This document shows, one piece after another, positions 557-56,455 of a stretch of 64,000 bases of DNA. The position numbers were made by a program, and so were the translations under genes. Numbering within the stretch: position 1 is the first letter of the stretch; each line of letters starts with the position of its first letter. This stretch comes from a virus, in IMG/VR virus record IMGVR_UViG_3300047551_002812, positions 1 to 64,000 of that record; one strand, 5' to 3'. A model generated the notes under the pieces. That model saw only the letters and a list, made by a program, of their open reading frames with translations. It was not told the DNA's origin and did not search any database.

Positions 557-1336
557 TCAGAGATCAAAGACTCTTTTCATAAACCATGCCTTGAACCTCC
601 GTCCCCAAGTCTTCCTTGGGGTTTTCTTTTGTTCGGTAGTAGTAGTGGAGGTATAAGTGTGCTGTTGAGGCTGAGATTCCAGTTCTGGCTCGTTTTTGAT
701 CTCCTCTAAGGCCTTACTGATGCAGGGGAACTGCTCCGAGAAGACCCCGGAGATGGCGTGGGCAATCTCCATGTGCTCCTTCTGGGTACCATTAGCCCCG
801 CGGAGATCGATGTAGTGCATCCAGGAACGTAGGGTGCCGGTCATGTAGATCCGACTCGGGGAGTTCATGGGTAGGACCTTACGAGCGCACTCTTTGGCGA
901 CTCCGGCCTCCAGCATGTCATCATAGAGTTCTTGGGCCTCGGCAAAGAGCATCTTGATTCGTTGCTCGAACGCTCTTACCAGCTCAGGGTCCAGATCTGC
1001 GACGGAATTCTGGCGGTTCTTGGTGTCCTGGCGACGGAGCTCCGGCAGTTGGACAGTTCCTAGATCCTTCACGTCGGCGTAACGCTGGGAGAACTCTTGG
1101 AAACTGAAGGAGCGGTGGCGGATGATCTGGGCGGCGATATCGCGGGTGGTATTGATCTCCACGCACATAGAAGCCATCTCGAACGGGCTCCAGTGGCGAT
1201 TCTTGATGAGGTACTTGATCAGGCGGGAGGCCGTGTCGTAGTTTCCTTGGTTCTTAGGTGCCGACACACGCGCCATATCGGTGATGAGATGCTCCGCCTC
1301 AGGAGTCACCCACATTAGTTTGACCAGTTGAGCCAT
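557..1336 (-). CDS. thyX: FAD-dependent thymidylate synthase ThyX
   Basis: ThyX signature RHRSFSFQEFSQRY, plus HWSPFE, KECARKVLP and LRSWMHYIDLR. Confidence 0.97.
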   Translation of the reverse strand: MAQLVKLMWVTPEAEHLITDMARVSAPKNQGNYDTASRLIKYLIKNRHWSPFEMASMCVEINTTRDIAAQIIRHRSFSFQEFSQRYADVKDLGTVQLPELRRQDTKNRQNSVADLDPELVRAFEQRIKMLFAEAQELYDDMLEAGVAKECARKVLPMNSPSRIYMTGTLRSWMHYIDLRGANGTQKEHMEIAHAISGVFSEQFPCISKALEEIKNEPELESQPQQHTYTSTTTTEQKKTPRKTWGRRFKAWFMKRVFDL

Positions 1337-1360: not shown

Positions 1361-1378
1361 CATTCTACCACAGATATG

Positions 1379-7596: not shown

Positions 7597-7667
7597 AGAG
7601 ACTCCTATGCTGATTGGTCTATGCTACTTTAAACTATGAGTCTGGATCTGTAAACCCTTCCTTGGTT

Positions 7668-8757: not shown

Positions 8758-8785
8758 AGGACTATGGCGTATATGGTGCTTTAAA

Positions 8786-8938
8786 CTACTGTTTTTCCTG
8801 CTCTTTCCAACCTTCCGGAGGTTGAGGTTTTGCCTTTATCACTCTAAATAAGGTGTCAGTATCATCACTATCAAGCGCTTTTTTTCTCATAGCGAGACGC
8901 TGTTTCTGATACTCTGTTAGATTTTCGTATGGGTCCAT
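8786..8938 (-). CDS. Unlisted 50-aa protein ending [14 protein letters not shown]
   Basis: Translated by hand: [50 protein letters not shown]; fills the gap between neighbours exactly. Confidence 0.75.
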
Positions 8939-8941
8939 GGT

Positions 8942-11584
8942 TTAGTTTGCATCCTCCAGATAGATAACTTTAACCTTACCTGCTTTAAGTTCGTTAGCTC
9001 CCCACGATATTCCTTGCCAATCCGCTAAAGAATGTTCTTCGACTTTTGCAACTCGACATTGCTTACCTCTCTGCATAAGTGATTCTCGTTCAAGTTGATT
9101 AGCCGAAAGAGGCGCTATACACTTGATATTTTTTCCTGTGTAAACAGTTATAAAATTGAACTTCTCCGGATAACCACGGTAAAAAATATCCAGCACGCCG
9201 TTTCTCCCCATTTCGTCCCCTTCGTGATCATCTGTGTAGGATGCAAATCCAGTGGATTCATAAATATCCCCAGGTCTTAGATTTTTTATCGCGTCAACAG
9301 AATCAGTGTATTTTGTAGAGATTTTATTCATTCTGTAGAACGTACCAACATTTGTATGATCAGGTATTTGGTCAAGAGCTTCCCTCATCGTGTCAGCAAC
9401 TTGGTTGAAAAATTTCACATCTCCTGGAGTAAAAGAGGCAGTTTTTCCTCTAATTAAAGCATTTAAATCCTCATATAGTACATCACTATACTCTCTCAAA
9501 ACATATTTTCCATCTGGCGAGAGTTTCTTGAGTGCGTCCGGATCACCGCCATAGGAACCCGCGTAATTAGTATTCAATTGTCTATCTACCTCATTAACTA
9601 CACCTTTGAATATTTTGTCATTAAAAAGATTTTTATCACTTGTTAAATTAAAGTCTAACTTTGAGGCAACTGGTCCCTGCGGTGTCCCTGCCTGTTGGAT
9701 GGGAACTGCGGGAGTCGCACCGCCAGGTGCCTGAGCGGGACCTTGCACCAACTGATCCAAGGCGTCCTTAACTTCACCCCTTACTTTCTTATCCCAGTCG
9801 GGGTCATTGGAGTCTATACCCGAAGCCAGCGAGAAGGCGCCTTTCATCGCCTCGTCGACATCCTTCCAGTTCAGTCCTTTGTTCCCGGAGATCTTAGCGA
9901 TCTCCTGCGCAGAGATGAGTAGAGCGTTAACTCTGCGTTTGAATTTCGCTTTAACATCCGAGTCTAGTTTGGATGAATCGACCGCGTTCAGTAGTTCATT
10001 GTAATTATCTGCCAATGCCTGGATTTGATTGGTCCAGAGGTCCTTGTAATCGTCGTCGGAAGCGTTCTGCCAGAACTGCTTACCCTGACTCCCTGACTTG
10101 AGAGTCCATAGCTCCATAGGTATGGCTCCGTAGTCCTTACTCCCGCCCATAGCGCGGAAGTTGAAAGTCCCACCGGAGTCGATCCTGATAAGATTACCCT
10201 TATCATCCACCATCATGTTATCGTTGGTCAGTCCGAGGAAATCCCAGTTAGCAACGAGAGCATCTGCCACGAAGGACTTCTTGATTTTATCTCCGATACC
10301 GAGGGCTTTTATCTCGTCGAACGGTAGATCGCTGATGGTCCGACCATTCTCTATGAACTTATTCACCAACCTACCATCGGCGGAGAGTTTGGACTGAACC
10401 GCGGAGGAGGGAAGGGACTTGCCCAAAATATTATAGATTGAGTTGGCTGTGCTTTCGGCCACATTCTGTCCAGGAGCGCCACCGTCCTTAACAACGTATT
10501 TCTCGTTTGTGGAATCACTCTCGTAGAGTCTTGGATTAGTGGAACCGGGTAGGGTCTTCGTTGGTTTGAATTCGTTACCACCGATCTTAAGTACATCACC
10601 GGTGAAAGTTGGCGTAGTATTTTTCGGAATATTCCAACCGTCTGCGACTTTAGGAGCTGGAGCTGGAGCTGGAGCTGGAGCTGGAGCTGGAGCTGGAGCT
10701 GGAGCTGGAGCTGGAGCTGGAGCTGGAGCTGGAGCTGGAGCGGGGGTCTGACCCCCAGATTTTTGATTCTGCCACTGTATTACTCCCTTCGCAGCATTTA
10801 TTAGACCTGGTTTTTTGCTATCGGGAGTCGCGTCCCAGACGCCCTTCAACTTGTCCTTGATTTGAGGGAAAGCTTTCTCGAGTAGGTCTTTGTTATCCTC
10901 AAAGAGTTTGTCATTATCCGCGGTTCCCTGGGAAGTCGGTGCGGGTGCGGGAGCAGGGGTGGCCGCCGGAGCCGGAGCCGGAGTCTTCTTAACACTCTTA
11001 GCCTGGGCTTTCTGATCGGCCTCCGCTTTGAACTTCTTCGCCTGCTTCAGGTATGCCTGTTTCTCCTTTGGAGAGAAGGTTGACCAGTTATCGCTTATAA
11101 GCGTCGCTCCTGTCCCCCACTTAGCTTTATACCCCTCCATCGTCTCTTGGAGCATCTGCTTGTCTTCCTCTGGCGACAACTGAGGAGGAGCTTTAGGAGC
11201 TTTAATAGCACTGCTCTGTGGCTTAGGTTGCTGTGTTTTCCACCCCTCAGGTACCTGAGGAGCGTTCTTATCGGCTTCTTTCGTGCTTGGTTGGGACTGA
11301 GCGGGTGGCGGAGTTCCGGCCCCCTGTTGCTCTCCCGGTTTTGCTCCCTTGGGTTCTGCTGGTGTAGACTTTACGTTTTTTGTCTTCTTGGACTCGGAAG
11401 TTTTCTTTCCGACATTGTTCCTACGACCGGCTTTCGCGTAAGCAATCGCCGCCGCCTGAGCCGGAGTATAAACCTCCCTTGCCGGATCGAGGTAGGGCGG
11501 GTCGTAACCGCACCCGTCTTTGTTAAGAATACACCGGATGTTTTCTTGGATGATCTTGTCCGAAGATCCCTCACGTAAAGGCAT
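8942..11584 (-). CDS. Kinase-like (HipA/PI3K fold) plus VIP2-like ADP-ribosyltransferase fusion with Pro-Ala linkers
   Basis: YVVK..AES..DALVANWD..DN..IRIDSGG kinase-like core; Y..LNALIRG, FYR, STGFASYT, ERE (R-S-ExE) ART motifs. Confidence 0.8.
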   Translation of the reverse strand: MPLREGSSDKIIQENIRCILNKDGCGYDPPYLDPAREVYTPAQAAAIAYAKAGRRNNVGKKTSESKKTKNVKSTPAEPKGAKPGEQQGAGTPPPAQSQPSTKEADKNAPQVPEGWKTQQPKPQSSAIKAPKAPPQLSPEEDKQMLQETMEGYKAKWGTGATLISDNWSTFSPKEKQAYLKQAKKFKAEADQKAQAKSVKKTPAPAPAATPAPAPAPTSQGTADNDKLFEDNKDLLEKAFPQIKDKLKGVWDATPDSKKPGLINAAKGVIQWQNQKSGGQTPAPAPAPAPAPAPAPAPAPAPAPAPAPAPAPKVADGWNIPKNTTPTFTGDVLKIGGNEFKPTKTLPGSTNPRLYESDSTNEKYVVKDGGAPGQNVAESTANSIYNILGKSLPSSAVQSKLSADGRLVNKFIENGRTISDLPFDEIKALGIGDKIKKSFVADALVANWDFLGLTNDNMMVDDKGNLIRIDSGGTFNFRAMGGSKDYGAIPMELWTLKSGSQGKQFWQNASDDDYKDLWTNQIQALADNYNELLNAVDSSKLDSDVKAKFKRRVNALLISAQEIAKISGNKGLNWKDVDEAMKGAFSLASGIDSNDPDWDKKVRGEVKDALDQLVQGPAQAPGGATPAVPIQQAGTPQGPVASKLDFNLTSDKNLFNDKIFKGVVNEVDRQLNTNYAGSYGGDPDALKKLSPDGKYVLREYSDVLYEDLNALIRGKTASFTPGDVKFFNQVADTMREALDQIPDHTNVGTFYRMNKISTKYTDSVDAIKNLRPGDIYESTGFASYTDDHEGDEMGRNGVLDIFYRGYPEKFNFITVYTGKNIKCIAPLSANQLERESLMQRGKQCRVAKVEEHSLADWQGISWGANELKAGKVKVIYLEDAN
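10653..10741. repeat. Perfect hexanucleotide tandem repeat (GGAGCT)14 encoding (Pro-Ala)n
   Basis: Directly visible in the sequence. Confidence 0.98.
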
Positions 11585-11609
11585 TGCAACTACACTACTT
11601 AGTAGTTCT

Positions 11610-11810
11610 TTAAACTCTGTCTTTACGTTCTTCTTTATGTATCCAGTCCTTTAGTCCGGACACGTAATCCCGGAGAATCTGGGCCTGCTCCAGGTGCCAT
11701 CTGTCCCCGGTCTCGAAGTGGAGCCGGGTGTGATTATCTATGGCCTTGAGAATGCTATGTATAGGAGCGTTCCAACACTCCCTTACAGGGGTGTTCCACT
11801 CTCGGGGCAT
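11610..11810 (-). CDS. Cyanophage-type hypothetical protein
   Basis: MPREWNTP..WNAPIHSILKAIDNH..WHLEQAQILRDYV. Confidence 0.75.
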   Translation of the reverse strand: MPREWNTPVRECWNAPIHSILKAIDNHTRLHFETGDRWHLEQAQILRDYVSGLKDWIHKEERKDRV

Positions 11811-17928: not shown

Positions 17929-17973
17929 CGGAAAGTGGACTATATCTCTATAGTTTCTTTAAACCCGAATAGT

Positions 17974-18580: not shown

Positions 18581-19570
18581 CTATACAGGCTCGTCAGCGT
18601 GATCAGAACTCCATTGGATAGCACTCATTACCACATTGCCGGCATCCCAGTCCCAGTCGGAGAAGTGTGGATTCTTCTCGATACTCTCCATCATCCACTG
18701 GTACACCGCGCTCCCCACGACCTCCGGCATCCTCGCCAGCCTTGAGGTATTCCTCCACACGCACTCGTACCTCGATCCCTTCTTCCCGTCGAATGTCTCC
18801 ACGTCCTTAAGAATACCCAGGACTTTCTTCTTGACGTAGGATCGTTTGGAAGCGGTGAGTTCACCGAGGATCTTACGTTGAAGCTTGGAATCGCCCCATT
18901 CCGATCCTTCTGGCTTTACAACGTTCCTCTCTGATTTGGTCAGGTATTGTTCCGCGTTGATCGCCTTAGCGATCTTCTCCAGATCATCAACCGAGGCGCA
19001 GTACTCAGCCTCAACAGAAATAACGCTATTTGCAAGTGAGCCAAAATATAACCTAGCGACATCAACACATTGCTTATCGCCATCGAAGGCGTAGGCAAGT
19101 CCGGTCGAGAGTCTTTTCGCCTGATCAAAGTCAACGACCTCCCGGTCAGCGAAGATAATCCCGCGGTGTTTCGGATGTTCCGGGGAGGAACTGAAACTGT
19201 GGTGGATTATAGAGAACTTTAGACCTAACTCCGCGGCTCGGAGTTGGATCTCCTCCGTCGACTCTCCGTTGTCGAAGTCGATAGCGAACACCTGACACGA
19301 CTTGAAGAGTCCCTCGACGCGACGGGGACGTTTCCAGTTGGGACAGACGTTGAAGACGAACGGACTCCAGGTCTGACCACGGGAGATGAAGCGAGCGAGG
19401 GACTTCGGAGTTACCTCCTCGATAGAGGAACCGAGACGGGCGCCGATGACCCGGACCTCGGTCTTGGGGTTGCCGAACTTATCCACCTCGGAACGGTACT
19501 GAAGCTTCGAGGAGGGTTTGTGGTCCCACTGCTCGGAGTCGATGGATACACTGGCGGAGATTTTAGTCAT
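18581..19570 (-). CDS. Putative primase (AEP/PrimPol-like)
   Basis: FAIDFDNG, HHSFSS..HPKHRGI, DKQCVDVARLYFG; adjacent to the helicase. Confidence 0.7.
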   Translation of the reverse strand: MTKISASVSIDSEQWDHKPSSKLQYRSEVDKFGNPKTEVRVIGARLGSSIEEVTPKSLARFISRGQTWSPFVFNVCPNWKRPRRVEGLFKSCQVFAIDFDNGESTEEIQLRAAELGLKFSIIHHSFSSSPEHPKHRGIIFADREVVDFDQAKRLSTGLAYAFDGDKQCVDVARLYFGSLANSVISVEAEYCASVDDLEKIAKAINAEQYLTKSERNVVKPEGSEWGDSKLQRKILGELTASKRSYVKKKVLGILKDVETFDGKKGSRYECVWRNTSRLARMPEVVGSAVYQWMMESIEKNPHFSDWDWDAGNVVMSAIQWSSDHADEPV

Positions 19571-19635
19571 GAGATTATTCTACCAAAGGATGAGTACAGG
19601 ATCTAGCCATTTCACATGTTGTCACAAACCCCCTA

Positions 19636-21477
19636 TCACACTTTTTGGGGATCGTAGGTTGGATCATAAATCCACTCCACGTTAGCTTTTGTCCTATCGG
19701 AGTAGATCGGTTCCAGTTCCTCGTCGGTCATCTGCTCGATAATCTTTTTAGCCAGTTCGTAAATCTTATTCTTCTCCCCTTTCACCATCTCCCACGTGCG
19801 GACGATATGCGTCATCTTCTTGCCCATCGAGAATCCGTCGCGGAGTCGAAGAACATCGAATACGTTCTCAGTAGTGAGAGCTACATCCTTGTCGTTCTTG
19901 TACGTGTTGAAGATCTCGTAGGCTTTATCAATGGAGGTAATGAGGAGTTTCCGTTGAGCCCAGTACGGGTGCCACTGGCTCCTATGGCGATCATTCCAGT
20001 CCTCCTTGAGCAGGTTGCGGAACTTATCGGCCCTCTTATCGATCATCAGGAACCTGGTTGCTTCGAGGATCTCCGCCAATGACCCCAAAGTAAGTTCTGG
20101 GAGCCAGTTCCCCTCGCCCTTGCGCTGGCGGATCGCGTATGCCAGAAAACCGAAGCGGATGAAGCACTCCAGTGAGTTCTTGTGGATCTGGATCCGCATG
20201 TACGGTAACAGAGACTCGGAGTAGAAGTGGACATCCTCGGAATTCCCGCACTTCTCCAAAAAGAAGTCGGTGCAGTCACGGAGAACTCGTAAGTAGAGAG
20301 ACATGGGGTCCGTGTCGTACTTCTCACAGAGCCACCTGATATGGGAACCGGGGTGGATGTCATGACCCTCCTCACCACTCATCTCCTCGATCTCGAAGAG
20401 TCGGTAGGTGGAGATGGGGGCGAGGCGACTGATGGCTCCCGAGTCGAGAGAGTAAGTGATCTCTGGTTTCCACTCGTTACAGTTGGCAAGAATGACTGTA
20501 TTAGCGACAACTTCCACGGCATCTACACCTTTATTCTCAATTTTTTCTGTTCCTCCAGTGACTACCGATTTGAAACTGTGAGCCTTGAGCATCTTCTCAA
20601 GACTCTCTAGTGTGAGATCGTCATTGTACGCCAGATGGGACGTGATCACCGATCCCTGGTTGAAACGAGATCCAAAATCCCCCATCGCGGAGACATCGTA
20701 TCCAACGTACTTCATAGCGTTAAGAATACCGTTTAGGGTGATTGTCTTACCTACTCCAGGTTCACCAATTACCACACCGGCCTTCCTGAACCCGTGCTCG
20801 AGGATCTCTCCGGTCCCCGGGTGAATGGAACCGCTCCGACCCACACAGGCCCGACCGATGATCAGTTTGACCATCTGGGCCTCGTGGTAGGGAAAGATCT
20901 TCACGATATCCTCGAAGGTGAGTTCCTGGAGTTCCTCGGTAAACCAGTCCTTCTCTGGGACGTAGGCGTAGGTCTCCTCGATGGCCTTCTTGTTACCTTT
21001 ATTTTTATTTGGTGAGTGAGCGATGCCAAGTTTGTACTGCCCCCCGCCCATCTTCTTGTGGCGCAGGGCCTTGAGGTTCTCCAGACCGAGAACATGGTCA
21101 GTGATCTCGCTACTTCTCCCGCTGCGGTAGACGAAGAGAGGAACGGCGAACTCCTGTTCCTCCGCGCCGATCTCCTCTACGCAAGTCTCGTCGAGGATCA
21201 GATCCTGCGCAGCCTCAAGGCGATATTCAGAAGCCGGGACCAGAAACTGGAACCACTTGGGATACCGGATACTCTTCGGTGCCATAGGATCCATAGAAGG
21301 ATCATGCTCTTCGTAGAGAGAGTGGAAGCTTTGGAGTTTTGCATTGTAGTCAAAGCGAAGATGATAACCCTTATTCTCGAGCCAGGCTAGAATCGACTTG
21401 TACATTTTCGAGGGACCCTTCACCCCCAGAGTCTCCTTAGCGGAGGAGTGTCCTTGTTTCTTTGATTCTGCTGCCAT
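19636..21477 (-). CDS. SF3 (D5-like) helicase/NTPase
   Basis: GEPGVGKT, YNDD, FKSVVTGG..IENKG, LANCN. Confidence 0.8.
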   Translation of the reverse strand: MAAESKKQGHSSAKETLGVKGPSKMYKSILAWLENKGYHLRFDYNAKLQSFHSLYEEHDPSMDPMAPKSIRYPKWFQFLVPASEYRLEAAQDLILDETCVEEIGAEEQEFAVPLFVYRSGRSSEITDHVLGLENLKALRHKKMGGGQYKLGIAHSPNKNKGNKKAIEETYAYVPEKDWFTEELQELTFEDIVKIFPYHEAQMVKLIIGRACVGRSGSIHPGTGEILEHGFRKAGVVIGEPGVGKTITLNGILNAMKYVGYDVSAMGDFGSRFNQGSVITSHLAYNDDLTLESLEKMLKAHSFKSVVTGGTEKIENKGVDAVEVVANTVILANCNEWKPEITYSLDSGAISRLAPISTYRLFEIEEMSGEEGHDIHPGSHIRWLCEKYDTDPMSLYLRVLRDCTDFFLEKCGNSEDVHFYSESLLPYMRIQIHKNSLECFIRFGFLAYAIRQRKGEGNWLPELTLGSLAEILEATRFLMIDKRADKFRNLLKEDWNDRHRSQWHPYWAQRKLLITSIDKAYEIFNTYKNDKDVALTTENVFDVLRLRDGFSMGKKMTHIVRTWEMVKGEKNKIYELAKKIIEQMTDEELEPIYSDRTKANVEWIYDPTYDPQKV

Positions 21478-21525: not shown

Positions 21526-22806
21526 TCAGTCGTCGAGGACTGATACGAGAGATTTAAGATCCTTCACGATCGAGTCCTTAAGCTCCTTTAGTCTTTTGAT
21601 GGTTATTCTTAGGTCCTTGACGCATTTTTTATCGTCTTTCTCCTTGCACTTCGAGACCTGTTCGGTTTGCTCTTTGATCTGGAGTTTCAGATCCTCCTGC
21701 TCTACGACTAACTTCTTGCATTTATCGAACATCTCGAGTTCCTCCGCGACGCTGAGGCAGAGGGTCTTATTCTTCCCGCGCAGTTCCGGGTTGGAGTTCT
21801 CCAGTCTGACTTTCCTCGCTTTGGAGAGGAAGAACTGCTTCTCGTCGTGGTGGGTCTCTCCGATCTCTGGCATGAAGAGTCCCTTTGACCGGAGGAAGTT
21901 TCTCGCGGAGAGTAGGTGGTCTTCTCGATCGGACACTAGATCCGAGTTGAGAACCTTAGAGAGCGTCTTCGTATCCTCCTTGGTGAATCTCCACTCTGTA
22001 TCCTCGTTGTACAGGTCGAAGAACCTCAGCGGGGTCCCTGGGAGCAGGTTGTCCCCGGCGTCTCCTAAGTTCTCCTTGACTATGTAGCAACCGTACGCTG
22101 ACTCGATGACGAACTTGTCCTTTCTGAGGTAGTAGTCGCAGACCTCACGTTCCGACCGGAGTCTAGGTAGCCACGGACCGGTATTGGCCCACACGATGCC
22201 ATGTGAGTCGGACACCAGCCCCTGCCAGTCCCCGTCTACCGTGGAGAGGATGATCTGCCGCTGAGACAGTGGAGTACCCTTCCGGGCCTTACGCTTAAGC
22301 CTGCAGATATGCCCGGCTATATCATCCGCCTCGAAGAACTCTTTGGCGAAGTAGGGGAACGAGGAGCCCTTGGATAAGATGTACTCGTACCCCGCGGCCT
22401 CGGTGAGATCGAAGTGCGGGGTCTTCTCCCCTCGGCCGCCTTTGTACTCCGCCAGGTCAAGTTTGTGAGCCTCGATATGCCTCCAATATCCCACCCCAGT
22501 TGTCGAGGCTTCGGAGAACTCCGGATCGAATCGTCCCTTAAGGTCATCTACCACCACTCCGACGAACGGGAAAGGCCGGAGCATATCCGGCCCGCGATTG
22601 AGCTTATAGGCCCACATCGCCTTCATGATGGTTCTCAGTTCTTTCTCGTCTTTTGCAACTTCGGAGGCCAGTTGGGCGTACTTGTTGATCGCGTGGGCGT
22701 ACACCTTGAAGTCGATAACAACAACCGGGCAGTACGGATCGGTAATCGGCTCGAATACGTCCTCGAGTAGGGTGGAGGTGTGGTCGTATGAGGGAAGCGA
22801 TATCAA
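21526..22806 (-). CDS. 5'-3' exonuclease (PIN/FEN, T4 RNase H-like)
   Basis: YWR..YKGGR, FEADDIAG, TVDGDWQGL, GDAGDNL. Confidence 0.88.
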   Translation of the reverse strand: MISLPSYDHTSTLLEDVFEPITDPYCPVVVIDFKVYAHAINKYAQLASEVAKDEKELRTIMKAMWAYKLNRGPDMLRPFPFVGVVVDDLKGRFDPEFSEASTTGVGYWRHIEAHKLDLAEYKGGRGEKTPHFDLTEAAGYEYILSKGSSFPYFAKEFFEADDIAGHICRLKRKARKGTPLSQRQIILSTVDGDWQGLVSDSHGIVWANTGPWLPRLRSEREVCDYYLRKDKFVIESAYGCYIVKENLGDAGDNLLPGTPLRFFDLYNEDTEWRFTKEDTKTLSKVLNSDLVSDREDHLLSARNFLRSKGLFMPEIGETHHDEKQFFLSKARKVRLENSNPELRGKNKTLCLSVAEELEMFDKCKKLVVEQEDLKLQIKEQTEQVSKCKEKDDKKCVKDLRITIKRLKELKDSIVKDLKSLVSVLDD

Positions 22807-23639
22807 TTCGCCACCTCCATGCGGACGGAGGGATGGGACTCGTAATTGATGATCTCGAAGTCGGTCTCTGGATCTAGGTCGAAGATGTTCTTCTCGTTGT
22901 TGATCCAGACATCACAAGCGGACATGGGTACGTTCTTGATGATGGACTCGATCGCCATCTCGTTCTGGGAGTAGATGTGGTTGTTGGCCGAGGCGAACAT
23001 CACGAACCGAGGTACGAGATTAGCGTCTTGGGCCATCTTGGTAGTAAGAAGGCCATAGCGGAACATATCCAGAGGTACTCCGGTGGCCATGTCATTACTC
23101 CGCGCGTTGACCATCAGATCAAGATAAGTCCCATCGCTAGAAAACACGAGGTTAGGATGACAAGGAGGGCAGTGAAGAGAATCGTAAGAAGGATTGAAAG
23201 TCTGAAGCACCAACTGGCGATTGGTCGGGTTGGTTCGGAGTTGCTCCCAGATCCACTTGAGTTGGTCGAATGGCGCATTACGAAACTTCTCCCACTGCAT
23301 ACTCTGCTCTGGACAGGCCTGGGGCCAGGATCGCCAGGAACGCCCGTAGGATCCCGCGAGACGGCCCTCGGTATCCGCCAGAAAGTCCCAGAAGTGCTTA
23401 GCGGGACCGAGATTCGTGACTCGGTAGTCCCCGTTGACATCCCACATGAACTCTCGGAAGAGGTTACGCACGGGCATCTTGCGGAGAGTGAGAGCGGGAA
23501 ATCCCTCCCGAAGGTCGATCTTGATGGTCTGGCCGAACATCTGCTTATAGCGGAGATTATTCCGACCGACAACCTCGGTTCCCTCGGTCAGGATCTCCTT
23601 GGCGATCTTGATGTACTGGTAGTCAAATGGCAGAGTCAT
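22803..23639 (-). CDS. Thymidylate-synthase-family enzyme, predicted dCMP methyl/hydroxymethyl-transferase
   Basis: FPALT, PPCH (C160), RSNDMATGVPLD with Asp191 at the E. coli ThyA Asn177 position, HIY. Confidence 0.85.
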   Translation of the reverse strand: MTLPFDYQYIKIAKEILTEGTEVVGRNNLRYKQMFGQTIKIDLREGFPALTLRKMPVRNLFREFMWDVNGDYRVTNLGPAKHFWDFLADTEGRLAGSYGRSWRSWPQACPEQSMQWEKFRNAPFDQLKWIWEQLRTNPTNRQLVLQTFNPSYDSLHCPPCHPNLVFSSDGTYLDLMVNARSNDMATGVPLDMFRYGLLTTKMAQDANLVPRFVMFASANNHIYSQNEMAIESIIKNVPMSACDVWINNEKNIFDLDPETDFEIINYESHPSVRMEVAN

Positions 23640-23691
23640 GGTCTCCCTTGATGAATGATTTGATTGTCATTCTATCATGGGTAGGAACCGA

Positions 23692-23973: not shown

Positions 23974-24270
23974 CTACGCTTCTCTAGCTTTATTCACGTC
24001 CTTAGCGGTTTTTGCTGCGTTTAGTCTCTGAATCTGTCGAGGATCTACGCCCCCAAGGTCCTGTTTCCATCTCTTCCCGGAGGAGTTCGCAGCGTTCAGG
24101 CCCGGGGATCCTTTCGGAAGGCAGGTGTTACCGGATTTTGTAGAACCCGGAGGGCATTTTAGCATTACTTTGCCTTTGTAGAAGATACGATCGGCGTAGT
24201 CGTACGTTCCATCCTGGCGTTTCTTTCTCAGGATTTCCATGTAGTCCTGCGCCGAGAGTTTCCTTTCCAT
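23974..24270 (-). CDS. Small basic late protein with CPPG..TCLP minidomain
   Basis: 98 aa; GTTTAAAG 22 nt upstream. Confidence 0.7.
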   Translation of the reverse strand: MERKLSAQDYMEILRKKRQDGTYDYADRIFYKGKVMLKCPPGSTKSGNTCLPKGSPGLNAANSSGKRWKQDLGGVDPRQIQRLNAAKTAKDVNKAREA

Positions 24271-24292: not shown

Positions 24293-24345
24293 CTTTAAAC
24301 CAGAGATTTTCGGTCTAAAGAACTTCAGACTACATCATCATACCA
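24293..24345. promoter_or_regulatory. Divergent promoter region: GTTTAAAG (-), GTCTAAAG (+), TGGTATGAT (-)
   Basis: Motifs at 24293-24300, 24313-24320 and 24337-24345. Confidence 0.65.
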
Positions 24346-24346
24346 T

Positions 24347-25564
24347 ATGACTAAGTACACTCACGGGCACATCATCCCCTTGGTAGGGGGGAGCGTGGTG
24401 GGAACCTCCCTCGCTCTCCGCTCCGATCCCCAGTGGATCGCGTCCTGGGGAAGTGTATTCGGAGCGAATGACCGGTACTGCCTGCAGTACATGGAGAAAG
24501 TACCGTTTTACGATTTTGAGAAGGAACAGTCTCCATCCTCCTACGTAGATATAGTAACCTCCTTACCACCCTGTGCCGGCCTGTCGATGGCAAATACCAC
24601 TTCTGGGGACGCAGTCAATAATCCGCGTGGGTGCTCCGCCCCGAGTAACATACATATGTACAACGCGGCGGAGTTCGCTATGTCGAAGATAGGACCCAGG
24701 GCCATGATGGTCGAGAACGCCCCGACTCTCTACTCGAAGATGGGAGAGGAGTTCGCGGAGAAGATCAACACTCTGGCCCAGAGTCACGGGTACGTCATGA
24801 GTCTGGTAAAAACAACCTCCATCAACCATGGGGTCCCGCAGGAGAGGACGAGGAGCTTCTTCTTCCTGTGGAAGGGTGACAGGGTGCCGGTTCTCTCCCC
24901 GATCAAGAGGGACTTCGTTCCCTTCCACCAGTTCCTGAAGGAAGGTCGATTCGCTAAGTCGGAGTCGGTCTCTAAATCCAAGAAGTTCCCGAGCGAGGAT
25001 CCGCTGTGGCAGTTCATCGAGTCGAAGTACGCTGGCTGCACCAAGCAGGATGTCCTCTCCCGGGTAGCTTCCAAACGTATGACATCCACCTGGAACGTTA
25101 TATACGACTCCGGATGGCTGGAGGAGGCCGCGAGAGTTGTCAAGGACGAGAAGGCGAACCGTTGGCTCAATTACACCCTGGAGAAGAAGAGAGCTGGTAA
25201 GAATATCATGGACGGGAGCATGAAACTCGCGTGGTTTAGGACCCAGAGCCTGATGTGGAAGAGTCTCCCGTACCTTATGCACCCCCACGAGGACAGGTGG
25301 CTCACGGTAGCGGAGGGTCTGGGACTGATGGGATTCCCCGATGACTACGCGGCCAAGGTCTCCATACCCACGAAGCATAGTAACGTGATCTGCCAGAACG
25401 TTCCAGCCTGCACCGCTGGGGATTGGGTGGGGGAGATCGTTGAGGCTCTGGATGGAAATAGGGAATGGATCGAGCCGGAGAGGAATCCCGATGGTAGTTA
25501 CAGAATCCTGAGGCAGAACAATACTGCCTCTAAGAATCCGATGGAACCACTCTGGTCAGTGTAG
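24347..25564 (+). CDS. Divergent DNA (cytosine-5)-methyltransferase-fold protein
   Basis: Motif IV PPCAGLS, VI VENAP, VIII GVPQERTR, IX RWLTVAE..LMGFP, X CQNVP; motif I is IPLVGG rather than FxGxGG. Confidence 0.85.
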   Translation: MTKYTHGHIIPLVGGSVVGTSLALRSDPQWIASWGSVFGANDRYCLQYMEKVPFYDFEKEQSPSSYVDIVTSLPPCAGLSMANTTSGDAVNNPRGCSAPSNIHMYNAAEFAMSKIGPRAMMVENAPTLYSKMGEEFAEKINTLAQSHGYVMSLVKTTSINHGVPQERTRSFFFLWKGDRVPVLSPIKRDFVPFHQFLKEGRFAKSESVSKSKKFPSEDPLWQFIESKYAGCTKQDVLSRVASKRMTSTWNVIYDSGWLEEAARVVKDEKANRWLNYTLEKKRAGKNIMDGSMKLAWFRTQSLMWKSLPYLMHPHEDRWLTVAEGLGLMGFPDDYAAKVSIPTKHSNVICQNVPACTAGDWVGEIVEALDGNREWIEPERNPDGSYRILRQNNTASKNPMEPLWSV

Positions 25565-26047
25565 AGAGTAGTTATACTGCTGCCACTCCGGGTCGTTTGT
25601 CTGGGAGATAGTGAAGGTGATCTTACTGATCGGAGCGGCGGGTTTTCTTAGTAGTCTCATTCCGGTATGCTCCAAGAGTTTGTCGCTCTTAAGGGTGTTG
25701 CACCTGCTACAGGCTACCACTAAATTCTGCCAGGTGTCCTGCCCTCCTTTGCTTTTGGGCAGGACGTGGTCTATAGTCAGTTTTCTGGTGGCTCCGCAGT
25801 ACTGGCATTTATGCCCGTCTCTTTTGTAGATCATTGATCTGGATGGTTTGGCTTCCATCATCTTAGAGACGGGTATCCGTACGTACTCGACGAGACGTAT
25901 GACCCTCTCGGAGATTATCTTGGCCTTCTCCTTGACGAGGAGAACTATAGCTCTCTTCCAGCTCGTGATGTTTATTGGTTCGTAGGTAGCGTTTAAAACT
26001 AGAACCGACGACTCCGGCCTAATCCCCCATCGAGTTTCCTGTGCCAT
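25556..26047 (-). CDS. HNH endonuclease (McrA-like)
   Basis: VLVLNATYEP, RDGHKCQYCG..TIDHVLPKSKGG..WQNLVVAC..CN; ATG at 26047 preferred. Confidence 0.92.
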   Translation of the reverse strand: MAQETRWGIRPESSVLVLNATYEPINITSWKRAIVLLVKEKAKIISERVIRLVEYVRIPVSKMMEAKPSRSMIYKRDGHKCQYCGATRKLTIDHVLPKSKGGQDTWQNLVVACSRCNTLKSDKLLEHTGMRLLRKPAAPISKITFTISQTNDPEWQQYNYSLH

Positions 26048-26195
26048 CGCAATACTCGCACTCCTGTACTTCGTTAGGTTCGGCGTAGCCCTCGGGAGAG
26101 GTGTGAGTGATGATCTTGAAACCCCTCCCGTCGCAGTAGGCACATCTGTTGTACTCTATCTGCTCTATCAGTCTCTGGACTTTTTTCTTTGTCAT
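26019..26195 (-). CDS. Small DnaJ-type zinc-finger protein
   Basis: CAYCDGRG and CEYCDGTG (CxxCxGxG x2); ATGA overlap with the upstream stop. Confidence 0.7.
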   Translation of the reverse strand: MTKKKVQRLIEQIEYNRCAYCDGRGFKIITHTSPEGYAEPNEVQECEYCDGTGNSMGD

Positions 26196-26653
26196 GTGGT
26201 CAGGGAGAATTTCGCGGAATCGCACTCTCCACGCAGTTCCTTCGAGGGATCGGACGGTGCTGACTCCGTACCATTGGTGATGTGGTCCTTACGTTTCGAG
26301 TTGTAGTTGAGTTTTTTGGCGGCGATCTCGGCGAATTCCTTTCCACTAACTCCGGCGTACGCTAGAGCGGCCCTGTGGAACAGGAGCACGTCGAACATCT
26401 CAGCGATAAACTCCTCCCGGTTCTCTCCGGAATCCAGGAACGAGGGCTCGTTGATCTTCCAACTACGCCGGGGAACGTACACGCGGGCCTCGATAACCTC
26501 CTCGATGAGATGTCCGAGGTGCTCGATGACCTTGGCGTGGCGTGTGTCCCTGGAGATATCCTCGTCGAGAGGGCCGGGTTGTCCGGCCGCCCCGGCGTAC
26601 TTCTGCTGGGAGGCGTACCCGTCGTCGATAAACTGCGCGTAATCAAAACTCAT
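26192..26653 (-). CDS. All-alpha NTP pyrophosphatase (dimeric dUTPase / T4 gp56 dCTPase-like)
   Basis: EEVIEA..RRSWK..EMFDV..KKLNYNSKR. Confidence 0.8.
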   Translation of the reverse strand: MSFDYAQFIDDGYASQQKYAGAAGQPGPLDEDISRDTRHAKVIEHLGHLIEEVIEARVYVPRRSWKINEPSFLDSGENREEFIAEMFDVLLFHRAALAYAGVSGKEFAEIAAKKLNYNSKRKDHITNGTESAPSDPSKELRGECDSAKFSLTT

Positions 26654-26680: not shown

Positions 26681-26689
26681 ATTCTATCA
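26681..26689 (-). promoter_or_regulatory. Sigma70-type extended -10 TGATAGAAT
   Basis: Representative copy. Others: 1362-1370, 19577-19585, 23669-23677, 28644-28652, 30367-30375, 31989-31997, 55110-55118 (all -) and 47664-47672 (+). Confidence 0.8.
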
Positions 26690-26705: not shown

Positions 26706-28622
26706 TCAACCCTCGCAGGCTGCGCACTCCCCGTACTGTTTCTCCGGGGTGCCGATCCTCTCCGCCAGCTCAGTGTACCCGCCGATGTGGTGTCCGTTGA
26801 TCCAGATCTGGGGCACTGTGCGGTAGGGAAACTCCTGGTCGGGTACGTTGACCCTGTCGATCTCCTCGATCGTGTAACCTTTAGACCTCAGTAGTGATTT
26901 TGCCATGGTGCAGTACGGGCACGTCTCCTTGGTGATGATTTTAGCTACCCTCGAAATTGTCTCCAGTTTCTTACGTTTCACTAGGAGCGAACTGCTCTTA
27001 AGATAGTAAAGTGACTTTAATCCTCCCTTCCATGCACTCAGGTGGAGTCTGAAGAGGTACTCGGGAGAGGATTCGGGATCGACGAAGAGGTTGATGGATT
27101 GTCCTTGGCAGACGAATGGTTGACGATCGGAGGCCTGTTTGATTATCTCGAACTGATCGATCTCCCTCGCCGTCTTGAATACTTCCTTGGCGTGTTCGTC
27201 TAGGAAGTCGAGATGCTGTACCGATCCTCGGAACTCCAAGATCGACTCCCAGGTCTCCTCGGTATTGCGCCCGATCCGCTCGAGATGCTCAACCAGGTAC
27301 TTATTCTTGCGTACGAAGGTACCCTTGGCCTGTTTGGCGACGTAGTAGTTAGCATCGATGGGTTCGATACCCTCACTTCCAGCACCGCAGATGACCGAGT
27401 TGGATTTGGTGGGGGCGATCGCCATCAGGTGCGTGTGGCGGAGACCGGTACCCTGGCACCACTCCGGCTCCCCGTAGGTAGTGGCCATGTCGCGAGAAGC
27501 CTTAGTGGCCTTCTCCTTGATAAACCTGTGCATCTCTACGTTAAGTTGGCGGGCCTCCTCAGAAGCGAATGGTAGGTTTTTGGACTGATAGAGAGCGTGA
27601 AGACCCATGGTCCCGAGACCCAATGCCCTGGACTTGCGAGCGAAGCGAACAGCTCTACCAAGCGAGGTGAGTCGTTCGGCCTTGTGGCAGAACTCCTCCA
27701 CCACAGCATCGAGTAAATAGATCGCCAACTCTGGCACGGTCTTGCCAGTCGCTGGACCCTTCCAGTCCTTCCACTCCTCCCACCGTGAGAGGTTCAATGA
27801 GGAGAGTACGCAGACAAAAGTATGACTCTCGTCGGTGTGAAGAAAGATCTCGGAACAGAGATTGCTGAGTTTAACACTGAGACCACGCTGAGTGTAGCAC
27901 TCCGGATTGGCCTTATTGGCATTGTCGATGAAGATGATGTACGGTGACCCACTGATCATCCGAGCCTTGAGCACCTCACCAAAGACCTTCTGCTTCTCCC
28001 TGTCGCCCCTGAGCATACTCTCCACCCACTCGTCGGTGACAGTCACAGCGATGTTACTGTCGATGAAGTCCCTCGGATCGCCCTGGGAGTGGTCCTTAGA
28101 ACGTAGGACTTCGGGTAGATCGGGGTGGTCGATGGGAAGATAGAGAGCGAAACTTCCGCGCCTCACGCCTCCCTGGGAGACTACGGAGGCACACTGGTCG
28201 TACTGCCTCATCCAGGGTACGACCCCGGTGCTCTTACCACCGGAGGAGATAGGGGCTCCTGAGGGACGGATATCCCCGAAGTACGTACCGACTCCACCGC
28301 CATGCTGGGACAACGCCGCGGACTCCTTCAAGTGCGAGTAGATCGATGGCACGGAGTCGTAGAGATGGTTGGAGTAGCATGAGATCGGAAGTCCGCGTGA
28401 GGTGCCGAAATTACTAGCCACCGGAGTAGCCGGCCCGAGAAACCCCCGCCAGAGAATCTCGAATACGTCCCGTGAGAGTTCAGGGTAGTTAAGTAATTTT
28501 GCGGACTGATTCGCGATCCTCTCGTACATCCCTCTTGGGGTCTCCCCCTGATAAAGGTATCCACGAGACAACGTGTCGATGGCCTCCTTAGTCATCCATT
28601 CAGGTACTTGAAGTTCTGGCAT
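26706..28622 (-). CDS. nrdA: Class I ribonucleotide reductase alpha subunit with glutaredoxin domain
   Basis: PISC, SNLCSEI, CVLSSLN, AIAPT, KSLYY; Grx CPYC..TVPQIWING..IGGY; terminal CAACEG. Confidence 0.95.
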   Translation of the reverse strand: MPELQVPEWMTKEAIDTLSRGYLYQGETPRGMYERIANQSAKLLNYPELSRDVFEILWRGFLGPATPVASNFGTSRGLPISCYSNHLYDSVPSIYSHLKESAALSQHGGGVGTYFGDIRPSGAPISSGGKSTGVVPWMRQYDQCASVVSQGGVRRGSFALYLPIDHPDLPEVLRSKDHSQGDPRDFIDSNIAVTVTDEWVESMLRGDREKQKVFGEVLKARMISGSPYIIFIDNANKANPECYTQRGLSVKLSNLCSEIFLHTDESHTFVCVLSSLNLSRWEEWKDWKGPATGKTVPELAIYLLDAVVEEFCHKAERLTSLGRAVRFARKSRALGLGTMGLHALYQSKNLPFASEEARQLNVEMHRFIKEKATKASRDMATTYGEPEWCQGTGLRHTHLMAIAPTKSNSVICGAGSEGIEPIDANYYVAKQAKGTFVRKNKYLVEHLERIGRNTEETWESILEFRGSVQHLDFLDEHAKEVFKTAREIDQFEIIKQASDRQPFVCQGQSINLFVDPESSPEYLFRLHLSAWKGGLKSLYYLKSSSLLVKRKKLETISRVAKIITKETCPYCTMAKSLLRSKGYTIEEIDRVNVPDQEFPYRTVPQIWINGHHIGGYTELAERIGTPEKQYGECAACEG

Positions 28623-28725
28623 CTGGTAAGAGTTGGTAGGTTAATTCTATCATTGGGTATTGCAAAGTCACCCTGTGAGTAACATAGTATTACTCCAAGG
28701 TAGGTTGGTATGGTCTGACTAAGCG

Positions 28726-29136
28726 TTAGTTACTGTTATCGATCAAGCCATCATCCCAAGCCTGTTGCACGTTCTGAGATTTAGTTCCCCACTTCAGATT
28801 TGAGATAGCGTTGTTAGTCCCATCATTGTCTTTGTGAAGAATGACAATATTCTCTCCTTTGGGTTTAGGCGGACCGAACAACTCCATCACCATTTGATGA
28901 AGTGGTGGTTCTTCACGGTTACCACTCCACGTTAGATTCACTCTCTGATGCTTACGTCCATCATCGCGAGGTTTACGGAGTTCAGAGTCACCTTTTCTTC
29001 TCACTTTGCCGGTATTACTCACTTCGTATGGAGAGTTGTGCCACTGTTTCCATACTTCTCTAGAGTCAGAGAAGTTCCTACCTCCCTGTTCTCTACCTCT
29101 CACTCTCCATCCGTCCGGAGTCCGAAAATTATTCAT
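28726..29136 (-). CDS. NUMOD4/HNH homing-endonuclease-like protein with N-terminal PDGW
   Basis: EVWK..YEVSNTGKVR, HQMVMELF, HKDNDGTNNAISNLKWGTKSQN. Confidence 0.85.
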   Translation of the reverse strand: MNNFRTPDGWRVRGREQGGRNFSDSREVWKQWHNSPYEVSNTGKVRRKGDSELRKPRDDGRKHQRVNLTWSGNREEPPLHQMVMELFGPPKPKGENIVILHKDNDGTNNAISNLKWGTKSQNVQQAWDDGLIDNSN

Positions 29137-29344
29137 GCCATCTCTCCACGAAATCGTCGAAACCCCCGCGACCGCCGCAGGGTCTGGAGTACCTATCCGA
29201 AGGTGGTGTGGTTACGTTCATTCTATGAACTTTACTTAGGTACCTGTCCGCTTTTGGATCGGTGATCAGACACACCGTTCCATGATCGAGTTCCATGAGA
29301 TCGATATTTCTGTCCGGGTTGGGGTGAATTGCCATAACTATCAA
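29129..29344 (-). CDS. Hypothetical protein
   Basis: 71 aa, coupled to the nrdB stop. Confidence 0.55.
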   Translation of the reverse strand: MIVMAIHPNPDRNIDLMELDHGTVCLITDPKADRYLSKVHRMNVTTPPSDRYSRPCGGRGGFDDFVERWHE

Positions 29345-30336
29345 GTCAAAACAAGATCCAGTGTGGAGAGATCAACTGCCATGAAGTCCTGGGAGACTTT
29401 AGCCACGTAGTTAGCCCCGTCCTTAGAGGCGGCGAAGAAATCAGTACTACTTGCTCCTTTGACCATCGGATCAAACCACGATGAGATTGACTTAGCTTTT
29501 GTTAGCTCTTCGGTGGATAGTTTGAATACCTGGTCAAGACCAAGAAGAAGCAGACGTTCGTTCGCTCTGTTCCTAATATAAGCCTTCAACTCACTAGCGT
29601 CGATCGAGGAGATATCCGCGTAGTTGAAAATGTGATCGATAAAGGAGCATTCCTTCTCCACGACCAGGCGGAAACCCTCGTAGATCGCCTTCCTCTCCGA
29701 ATCTGATAATCCGACCTCCTCGGTTAATCTCTTGAAGAGTTGGCATCCAGCTTCGGAGTGAGTCTGCTCGTCGATGGCGGACCAGGAGATGATCTGGGCC
29801 AGTCCCTTATACCTTCCATCACGATTGAAACTGAGAAGTACCGCGAAAGAACTGAACAGACTTACCCCCTCTCCGGCTCCTGAGAATACCGCTAGGGAGA
29901 CCTTGTCGGGATACTTGGAGAAGAACGTGTCGATTTTGGAGCAAGCGACCGGGTCATTGATGAACTCCTCATACTCATTAAGTCCGAGTACGTCATTCAA
30001 GTAGGAGTAGGCGGCGGCGTGGATCGTCTCAAAAAACGAGAAGGCTCTGGCCATAGCCCTGATCTCCGGTTTGGGGAAGATACGGCAGACCTCGTCGGCC
30101 CAGTAGCATCCAATACCTAGTTCCGCGCTTACAAATCCTTTGAGGATCCCGGCGATAACTGCCCTCTCATCGGGAGTAGAGTTGAACTGCCAGTCCCGTA
30201 GATCGGACTCCATCGCCACTTCCTGGTGACGCCATACACTCGCCACGGTTTTTTCGTAGTAGTCGTAGAACTCCGGGAAATCGAATCCGGTGTCCTTCTT
30301 GAACACCATCTTGTTATGCTCTAGGATACTACTCAT
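29341..30336 (-). CDS. nrdB: Class I ribonucleotide reductase beta subunit
   Basis: ETIHAAAYS, EGVSLFSSF, DEQTH, TDFF. Confidence 0.95.
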   Translation of the reverse strand: MSSILEHNKMVFKKDTGFDFPEFYDYYEKTVASVWRHQEVAMESDLRDWQFNSTPDERAVIAGILKGFVSAELGIGCYWADEVCRIFPKPEIRAMARAFSFFETIHAAAYSYLNDVLGLNEYEEFINDPVACSKIDTFFSKYPDKVSLAVFSGAGEGVSLFSSFAVLLSFNRDGRYKGLAQIISWSAIDEQTHSEAGCQLFKRLTEEVGLSDSERKAIYEGFRLVVEKECSFIDHIFNYADISSIDASELKAYIRNRANERLLLLGLDQVFKLSTEELTKAKSISSWFDPMVKGASSTDFFAASKDGANYVAKVSQDFMAVDLSTLDLVLT

Positions 30337-30384
30337 AGGACCGGGAAGTACTGCGGAAAGAGTTCTATTCTATCACAGATCACG

Positions 30385-30912: not shown

Positions 30913-30945
30913 AGTAGACCTAGTGGTAATATGTCTTTAAACTAT

Positions 30946-54484: not shown

Positions 54485-54520
54485 AGGTGGTAATGATTCC
54501 TATATCTAATCAGTTAGTCT

Positions 54521-56409: not shown

Positions 56410-56455
56410 CTTTGCGGGTTTAAAGTAAGTTATATTGACATAGTGCCCTGGAAAG

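Follow-up and report, generated by a model that had tools for sequence, protein, structure and literature searches.

The first natural enzyme of the DNA cytosine-5 methyltransferase (C5-MTase) fold with a cofactor other than S-adenosylmethionine (SAM) was reported in 2025: CmoX, encoded by Synechococcus phage S-B43, is a C5-MTase homologue that uses carboxy-SAM supplied by a phage CmoA (PMC12783734, Nat Commun 2025; PDB 8YF3). Its hallmarks are an SPPC motif and an arginine, Arg350, in place of Asn304 of M.HhaI, with Phe25, Glu47 and Asp69 kept (PMC12783734). The group that CmoX transfers is not a methyl group, and it installs a handle for further hypermodification. In other phages C5-MTs are coupled to TET enzymes and make 5-methylcytosine (5mC) for TET oxidation; some of these are inactive, with defects in motifs VIII-X, a pattern other than the one described here (Burke et al. 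2021, PMC8256090). The present analysis concerns a gene at positions 24347-25564 of a 64,000-nucleotide stretch of viral DNA (positions 1 to 64,000 of IMG/VR record IMGVR_UViG_3300047551_002812), referred to below as the window. Its predicted product, P0001, belongs to a large, virus-only branch of the C5-MTase fold, called here the PLxGG/QNVP clade after its motifs I and X, that keeps company with genes for the synthesis and decoration of 5-hydroxymethylcytosine (5hmC, or hmC).

Glucosyl-hmC DNA in the T-even phages is the work of the gp42 dCMP hydroxymethylase, the gp56 dCTPase, the gp1 kinase, and an alpha- and a beta-glucosyltransferase. Studies from the Klimasauskas laboratory are said to have found that bacterial C5-MTases carry out SAM-free aldehyde addition, dehydroxymethylation and thiol coupling on 5hmC and cytosine. 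These are in vitro side reactions of ordinary enzymes, in which the covalent Cys-C6 mechanism of the fold can, with no SAM present, activate C5 as well as the exocyclic carbon of 5hmC; no natural enzyme is known to be dedicated to such chemistry. In the literature searched we found no paper that treats the PLxGG/QNVP clade: the TIM5 paper has only the label 'DNA meth', a paper on 5-hydroxycytosine does not mention a methyltransferase, and a preprint on glycosyltransferases (GTs) mentions 'methyltransferases' near GT genes without detail (bioRxiv 10.1101/2023.12.21.572611).

The window comes from a 79-kb IMG/VR fragment with an estimated completeness of 49%, left by an uncultured phage related to the TIM5-like cyanophages (genus Aurunvirus). 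The phage collection holds no DNA nearly identical to it, and P0001 is 67-68% identical to the 'DNA methyase' of phages S-TIM54, S-TIM5, S-TIM61 and S-TIM66, with a local gene order that is alike. The open reading frame (ORF) is stop-free and encodes 405 amino acids (aa). A preliminary description, made from the letters of the window, had reported intact catalytic motifs PC, ENA and QxRxR beside aberrant cofactor motifs, and the translation bears out both observations: PPCAGLS (residues 74-80), ENAP (123-126) and PQERTRSF (164-171) stand with IIPLVGG (9-15) as motif I and CQNVP (349-353), reported as CQNV, as motif X. PF00145 recognizes the protein well above its cut-off of 22 bits (61.9 bits, E 9.3e-17), with an alignment confined to residues 44-343, so that motif I goes unrecognized; the score of the NCBIfam dcm model falls under its cut-off, and as a single sequence P0001 gave marginal matches to solved structures. 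Structure prediction, which had been proposed as a check, returned a confident C5-MTase fold (AlphaFold2 predicted local distance difference test, pLDDT, 95.3; predicted template-modelling score 0.93) with a complete Rossmann-type subdomain. The top Foldseek matches of the model are all DNA C5-MTases (template-modelling score 0.5-0.68, identity 12-16%), HhaI, HaeIII, DNMT1/MET1 and CmoX (8yf3) among them. Judged by profile and model together, P0001 is a protein of the DNA C5-MTase fold. In the model strand 2 terminates at Ser33, the place of the ribose-binding Glu in canonical enzymes.

These departures are not peculiarities of one sequence. HMMER, run exhaustively against 1.84 billion cluster representatives, gave 702 matches at E<1e-3 and 187 at E<1e-30, aligned over the full length with the N-terminus included; the clade comprises about 190 clusters at 50% identity and, by a 12-sequence profile, at least 585 IMG/VR contigs, and the ESM Atlas clusters closest to P0001 are 100% viral. 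Conservation was read from an alignment of the 150 best representatives, which are about 30% identical to P0001. Four residues are invariant (C76, E123, R167 and R169), and near-invariance extends to P11, L12, G14, G15, S33, N41 and D68, to the blocks 'PCAGLS', 'ENAP.L' and 'HG.PQ.R.R.F', to the motif IX block, and to Q350-N351-V352-P353. Motif I is I/V-I/V-P-L-I/V-G-G rather than FxGxGG (Pro in 141 and Leu in 143 of the 150); the acidic residue of motif II is replaced by Ser33 (Ser in 129), followed by Tyr or Trp; and motif X is x-Q-N-V-P rather than G-N-(A/S)-V, with Gln350 kept as Gln in 146. At position 58 the residue is Asp, Glu or Asn; at position 103, equivalent to Leu100 of HhaI, it is Trp or His. 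The clade retains the GG loop and, at the end of strand 3, the acidic residue that contacts the adenine N6. Given that the changes are near-invariant across representatives of about 30% identity, they go beyond chance.

A 100-member profile compared with solved structures matched HaeIII (5e-13), HhaI (1.5e-11) and CmoX (8YF3, 2.5e-11) best, with motif I outside all of the alignments. The canonical G-N-A-V-P falls on a-Q-N-V-P, which makes Gln350 the counterpart of the canonical Asn (HhaI N304), and the Glu29 of HaeIII motif II falls on a variable residue of the clade. PCQ and ENV align with PCA and ENA, so that two residues that pack against the target base are shortened to Ala clade-wide. By conservation and alignment together, the residues that touch SAM on its ribose and methionine side have been exchanged throughout the clade for others that are themselves conserved, with the base-activating machinery intact. 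The clade is thus like the canonical enzymes (M.HhaI, M.HaeIII, Dcm, DNMT1) in its fold, in the Cys, the Glu and the Arg-x-Arg of motifs IV, VI and VIII, in motif IX, and in its two domains with a variable target-recognition region; it is unlike them in motifs I, II and X, in PCA and ENA, in being confined to viruses and linked to hmC, and in that its members are not partners of restriction enzymes.

The termini of the clade deserve separate mention. Exactly LF ends 28 of 143 representatives and a hydrophobic-Phe tail is present in 58, whereas P0001 ends in PLWSV; an adjoining putative GT-A protein, u334 (alignment A6), ends in K-S-V-F. The LF/Phe and u334 tails resemble the clamp-binding peptides of T4-type replication proteins. 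One member, P0221 (598 aa), has a C-terminal CXXC zinc finger (PF02008, E 6.6e-7), a domain that reads unmethylated CpG in eukaryotes. Fusion to a GT like the T4 beta-glucosyltransferase (BGT) was not seen: the long members P0157, P0167, P0178 and P0182 had no match to the GT profiles used.

The genomic company of the clade was read from eighty IMG/VR loci. These were taken with 10-kb flanks, all their ORFs were clustered, and the loci were sorted into 11 groups by identity of the methylase-like protein at 50%, the window counting as its own group. A ThyA homologue lies within 10 kb in 36 loci (7 groups), and every ThyA homologue of the 80 loci has Asp at the position of E. coli Asn177, a type written here as ThyA(Asp). 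Groups 1 and 3 have an Asp-type ThyA elsewhere on longer contigs, in addition to a canonical ThyA, which rules out the methylase-like gene as the sole source of 5hmC where no ThyA is nearby. Altogether ThyA(Asp) co-occurs with the clade in 9 of the 11 groups and in Pseudoalteromonas phage XG4, and the two groups in which it was not found are represented only by contigs 15-25% complete. According to published diagnostics, N177D marks dCMP as the substrate, L143D/E a hydroxymethyl product, and D169N a 5-hydroxy-dCMP synthase (PMC13326640). All carrier ThyA homologues except that of the window combine L143D, D169 and N177D, the signature of a 5-hydroxymethyl-dCMP synthase (D-F-x-C-T, R-S-N-D, x-D); D169 is present in all, which rules them out as 5-hydroxy-dCMP synthases.

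Genes for the decoration of DNA usually adjoin the clade. A NAD-dependent epimerase/dehydratase is found in 39 loci (5 groups), mostly immediately upstream; a DNA alpha-glucosyltransferase (AGT; PF11440, E 5e-80) is immediately adjoining in 16 loci (3 groups); and a 421-aa protein without a Pfam match, present in 24 loci (5 groups), has a GT-B model whose best structural match is the T4 beta-glucosyltransferase. A dCMP deaminase (24 loci, 3 groups), an NTP-transferase (18 loci, 4 groups) and a GT2 glycosyltransferase (15 loci, 2 groups) also recur, as do a TET-associated glycosyltransferase (TAGT, PF20691), UDP-glucose dehydrogenase (UGDH), NTP-transferase/kinase fusions and phosphoheptose-isomerase-like genes. 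A gene of the dUTPase family and one that weakly resembles dNMP kinases lie beside ThyA, and the neighbourhood also has T4-type replication genes. The helical domain of the 5-hydroxymethyldeoxyuridine (5-hmdU) DNA kinase (PF18723) occurs one or two genes upstream in 11 loci of groups 2 and 3 (E 1.6e-16 at L019 519-1565); these phages have the dCMP-type ThyA, and the homologue may be a 5hmC DNA kinase. Phosphoheptose-isomerase-like genes and NTP-transferase/kinase fusions adjoin the BGT-like transferase at L004 4769-6376, L083 930-3005 and relatives, which suggests that these phages make an NDP-heptose or similar sugar for DNA decoration. Neither u334 nor the cluster of phrog_1574-like neighbours had a sequence match to solved structures; their DxD-like motifs alone suggest GT-A enzymes.

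The cultured carriers conform to this arrangement. In XG4 the order is ThyA(Asp), heptose-type genes, the BGT-like GT and the methylase-like gene. S-TIM54 encodes an AGT-like protein (PF11440, E 2e-10; E 3e-41 to a profile of the AGTs that adjoin the clade) and a 'GT' related to the phrog_1574-like gene that comes after the methylase-like gene in group 0. A distant cousin, gp301 of the cultured jumbo phage Bacillus phage G, has PCSGLS, ENAP and a motif I of 'IFGG', and its locus (L172 6755-8035, 2742-4151) places it 2.6 kb from an annotated alpha-glucosyltransferase, with a glucose-1-phosphate thymidylyltransferase near. The reverse test began from ThyA(Asp) in 80 fresh loci, mostly of one T4-like marine lineage: a methylase-fold gene was present in 43, with PLxGG in 43 of 43 and QNVP in all 41 that are full-length; of the 40 loci that extend 8 kb or more beyond ThyA on its downstream side, 31 have the clade; and a canonical C5-MTase was found nowhere among the 80. 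Genomic context thus ties the clade closely to ThyA homologues of the hmC-synthase type and to genes of DNA glycosylation and phosphorylation. The pairing with a dCMP-type ThyA that the preliminary description had remarked upon in one genome therefore holds clade-wide, together with DNA glycosyltransferases, and 'no genomic association' clearly fails as a description of this subfamily.

The window's own ThyA homologue, 0.7 kb from the methylase-like gene, is less easily read. It has 'PLD' for the 'PFN' of E. coli ThyA, which places Asp at the Asn177 position and by the published criterion makes it dCMP-specific; PPCH, D169 and a C-terminus like that of thymidylate synthase (TS) are retained, yet Cys occupies the L143 position and the 5-hydroxymethyl-dCMP synthase signature is incomplete. 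The AGT-like gene of its cultured relatives favours a hydroxymethyl product. Other carriers have ThyA homologues like T4 gp42 instead. Given that the window also encodes a ThyX, which provides dTMP, the ThyA homologue would be free for a dCMP reaction.

Carriers resemble the TET-associated systems in that a C5-MTase-fold gene is clustered with DNA glycosyltransferases and sugar epimerases, PF20691 being shared. In those systems, however, 5hmC arises from 5mC, whereas here it is expected from ThyA at the nucleotide level, and a search for TET/JBP (PF12851), run without a positive control, gave no match in five carrier genomes or the record of the window; a methyltransferase step consequently has no obvious place. 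The likeness to the T-even system lies in a shared logic and in some shared families: ThyA L143D/N177D, AGT (PF11440), a BGT-like GT-B, dUTPase- or MazG-like and dNMP-kinase-like genes, and T4-type replication genes. Unlike these carriers, T4 and the cultured T4-like coliphages have no methylase look-alike, and the TIM5-like phage is not T4-like. In a tblastn search of 50,697 cultured phage records the clade appeared only in TIM5-like phages and XG4, and the hmC-making T4-like coliphages were without a member.

The methylase-like gene is inverted relative to its neighbours, as first described, being the sole long plus-strand ORF in a minus-strand run from about 12.4 to 38.6 kb, and its S-TIM54 orthologue is likewise inverted. 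De novo k-mer analysis of upstream spacers yielded two promoter-like classes. The octamer GTCTAAAG, which the preliminary description had taken for a late-type motif 26 nt upstream of the gene, is not enriched as such (3 sites against 2.2 expected) and was rejected in that form in favour of the GTTTAAAG family, of which it is a one-mismatch variant: GTTTAAAG has 14 sites against 1.06 expected, 24-35 nt ahead of gene starts. The variant is conserved, for S-TIM54 keeps GTCTAAAG 21 nt before the ATG of the orthologue though the remaining spacer differs, so that the late-type assignment stands where the exact octamer did not, in a setting of neighbours with early promoters. In S-TIM54, the genes with GTTTAAAG ahead of them include that of the tail sheath and several annotated as virion structural proteins; the motif is also found 20 nt upstream of the AGT-like gene and before the operon containing 'GT'. 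By the genes downstream of it, GTTTAAAG is likely a late promoter of the TIM5-like lineage. The early class has the consensus TG(A/G)TAGAAT, a sigma-70-type extended -10 element, and suggests an early regulon of nucleotide metabolism read by host sigma-70. Enzymes acting on nucleotides would then be made early, and modifiers acting on DNA, the methylase-like gene included, would fall in the late class.

Taken together, these observations lead us to regard the PLxGG/QNVP clade as a large virus-only branch of the C5-MTase fold that would be a standing accessory of hmC-replacement pathways and would carry out a reaction other than ordinary methylation, a reading to which we give somewhat less than an even chance. 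On this proposal dC would be replaced by 5-hydroxymethyl-dC before replication and the base then decorated on DNA; late in infection the clade enzyme would act on the phage's own replicated DNA, flipping out a cytosine-type base and adding Cys76 to C6, and C5, or the exocyclic carbon attached to it, would gain or exchange a group with the aid of an adenine-containing ligand bound in a non-canonical manner. The favoured substrate is 5hmC or a derivative, leftover unmodified cytosine being the second choice: carriers appear to remove dCTP, to judge from their candidate dCTP-removing genes; the changes of PCQ to PCA and ENV to ENA would enlarge the base pocket; and the Leu of motif I (for Gly) and the Gln of motif X (for Asn) would reshape the region where the SAM methyl group and C5 meet. 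The reaction probably differs both from plain 5mC methylation at restriction sites and from the carboxy-SAM chemistry of CmoX. The more specific proposal, that the clade has lost methyl transfer from SAM to C5 and uses the Cys-C6 mechanism on 5hmC or leftover cytosine with another ligand, to yield or process an undescribed base, is put forward tentatively, as more apt to be wrong than right. Several points weigh against the general reading. T4 and its cultured relatives have glucosyl-hmC DNA without such a protein, which is therefore dispensable for hmC as such; the co-occurrence is partly explicable by shared descent of modules, the reverse test having drawn mostly on one T4-like lineage; the product of the window's ThyA homologue may be either 5-methyl- or 5-hydroxymethyl-dCMP; and the replacement of cytosine in the carrier phages may be incomplete. 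SAM could bind through alternative hydrogen bonds (Ser33, Asn41), because the clade still has the Rossmann subdomain, the GG loop and the acidic residue that follows strand 3, and nearly all known PF00145 proteins are SAM methyltransferases.

The same retained features are what commends an ordinary SAM-dependent C5-MTase with divergent SAM contacts, whether as a late mop-up of cytosines missed by the nucleotide-level pathway, in a two-tier scheme, or as an anti-restriction orphan. The full catalytic motifs and fold, a PF00145 score above the gathering cut-off, the GG loop and the acidic residue at the adenine position, and the prior that nearly all members of the fold use SAM are joined here by a late-type promoter that suits work on replicated DNA and by the C-terminal LF tails of many members, which could tether a scanning enzyme. 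Against this, at least six SAM-contact positions are replaced and fixed, far more than in CmoX, and the MazG-like or dUTPase-like genes by the module suggest that dCTP is removed; a generic methylase would not account for a clade found almost exclusively in phages with dCMP-type ThyA, nor for the lack of a canonical C5-MTase in the 80 loci of the reverse test. We hold such an enzyme quite possible all the same, as a serious minority view. Carboxy-SAM was the example of a modified cofactor offered in the preliminary description; the corresponding reading is a carboxymethyltransferase of the CmoX type that uses it to make 5-carboxymethylcytosine. CmoX itself is encoded by a Synechococcus phage, the cofactor could come from a host CmoA, and the changed position in motif X is the very one that selects carboxy-SAM in CmoX (R350) and in M.MpeI N374K; the clade is moreover like CmoX in being a phage C5-MTase fold altered at HhaI N304. 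But the residue there is Gln rather than Arg or Lys, motifs I and II are rebuilt, the Phe, Glu and Asp of CmoX motifs I, II and III are not kept, and the Ser before PPC is not conserved, the window having LPPC and the clade V/T/L-C/P-P-C instead of SPPC. The partners of CmoX are CmoA and an amide ligase, those of the clade a ThyA(Asp) homologue and glycosyltransferases; an asparagine-synthetase-like ligase was not noticed among the annotated neighbour clusters. CmoA (TIGR00740) had no match in the window's own record (49% complete), S-TIM54, XG4, a complete 360-kb jumbo carrier and a 140-kb carrier, in a search that gave the expected match in E. coli as positive control and in which the S-TIM54 and XG4 genomes are complete. 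With Gln350 in place of Arg and no CmoA in the searched genomes, the carboxy-SAM reading was rejected as highly improbable; of the modified-cofactor idea, the clade-wide change of the cofactor site stands and the carboxy-SAM example does not. Finally, the target may not be phage DNA at all: the protein might act on unmodified host DNA (by methylation, SAM-less deamination or covalent trapping) or on RNA in the manner of DNMT2, or bind modified DNA without catalysis. In an hmC phage, free cytosine is certain only in host DNA and in RNA, and an association with hmC synthesis would follow from self/non-self logic. The promoter, however, is late-type, not early; placement with DNA glycosyltransferases is tight and often adjoining; the invariance of the catalytic Cys, Glu and Arg speaks against mere binding; and a cofactor pocket that is conserved, not decayed, argues against a deaminase without a cofactor. 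We therefore consider a target other than phage DNA unlikely.

The surroundings of the gene, with coordinates collected in the table below, are those of an early nucleotide cluster, to which NrdA and NrdB belong. Two genes away lies a 153-aa ORF with no Pfam match at E<0.01; its ESM Atlas feature score to a viral MazG-core cluster is 0.97, and its ten best named matches are all within the MazG/PRA-PH/dUTPase_2 set. As a lead only, it is a candidate for the dCTPase of a cytosine-replacement pathway. The HNH gene is convergent with the methylase-like gene, its final 9 bases overlapping the 3' end of the latter; it looks like a mobile insertion, since S-TIM54 has small ORFs here and an HNH gene farther off. 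Between the ThyA and methylase-like genes S-TIM54 has a 560-aa ORF of unknown function (L001 7246-8928), where the window has only a 98-aa ORF (23974-24270, minus strand) that is 35% identical to its N-terminal end. Farther away, an 880-aa protein behind a GTTTAAAG motif (8942-11584, minus strand) carries a C-terminal ADP-ribosyltransferase exoenzyme domain (PF03496, E 1.9e-5).

Table. Features of the window that bear on the methylase-like gene, its promoters and its neighbours.
Feature	Position	Strand	Basis or remark
C5-MTase-fold protein, PLxGG/QNVP clade (P0001)	24347-25564	+	translation, PF00145, AlphaFold2/Foldseek, clade-wide motif conservation
GTCTAAAG, one-mismatch variant of the late-type motif	24313-24320	+	26 nt before ATG
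Perfect GTTTAAAG for the divergent small gene 23974-24270	24293-24300	-	shares the 76-nt spacer; same divergent layout in S-TIM54
Other GTTTAAAG sites include	7627-7634, 8779-8786, 11608-11615, 17957-17964, 30935-30942, 54519-54526, 56418-56425		
Early extended -10 element TGATAGAAT before the ThyA homologue	23669-23677	-	
Extended -10 before MazG-like gene	26681-26689	-	
Extended -10 before NrdA	28644-28652	-	
Extended -10 before NrdB	30367-30375	-	
Extended -10 before ThyX	1362-1370	-	
Extended -10 before unknown 329-aa ORF 18581-19570	19577-19585	-	
ThyX	557-1336	-	PF02511 E 2.5e-45; TIGR02170 162 bits, above cut-off
Primase-like protein	19636-21477	-	
Flap endonuclease-like protein	21526-22806	-	
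ThyA homologue, Asp at E. coli N177 position (dCMP-type)	22803-23639	-	PF00303 E 3.4e-55, alignment to solved TS structures
HNH endonuclease	25556-26143	-	
MazG-like all-alpha NTP pyrophosphohydrolase, candidate dCTPase	26192-26653	-	language-model features
NrdA with C-terminal glutaredoxin domain (26706-28622) and NrdB (29341-30336)	26706-30336	-	NrdB via S-TIM54 synteny

In a genome whose cytosines are already substituted at C5, an ordinary C5 methylase has no obvious substrate, and it is this that gives the PLxGG/QNVP clade its interest. The clade is much larger than the CmoX case, is confined to viruses, and has a more deeply rebuilt cofactor pocket. It also sits within published hmC-glycosylation gene clusters, in a literature in which we found no discussion of it, and this in the fast-moving field of phage DNA hypermodification. 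Cultured carriers, namely the TIM5-like cyanophages and Pseudoalteromonas phage vB_Psh_XG4, allow direct testing. Two-tier protection, if true, would add something new to phage anti-restriction logic; if instead the enzyme reacts with 5hmC or employs a new cofactor, the outcome would be a DNA base or an enzyme chemistry not seen before, useful for epigenetic sequencing and for labelling DNA.

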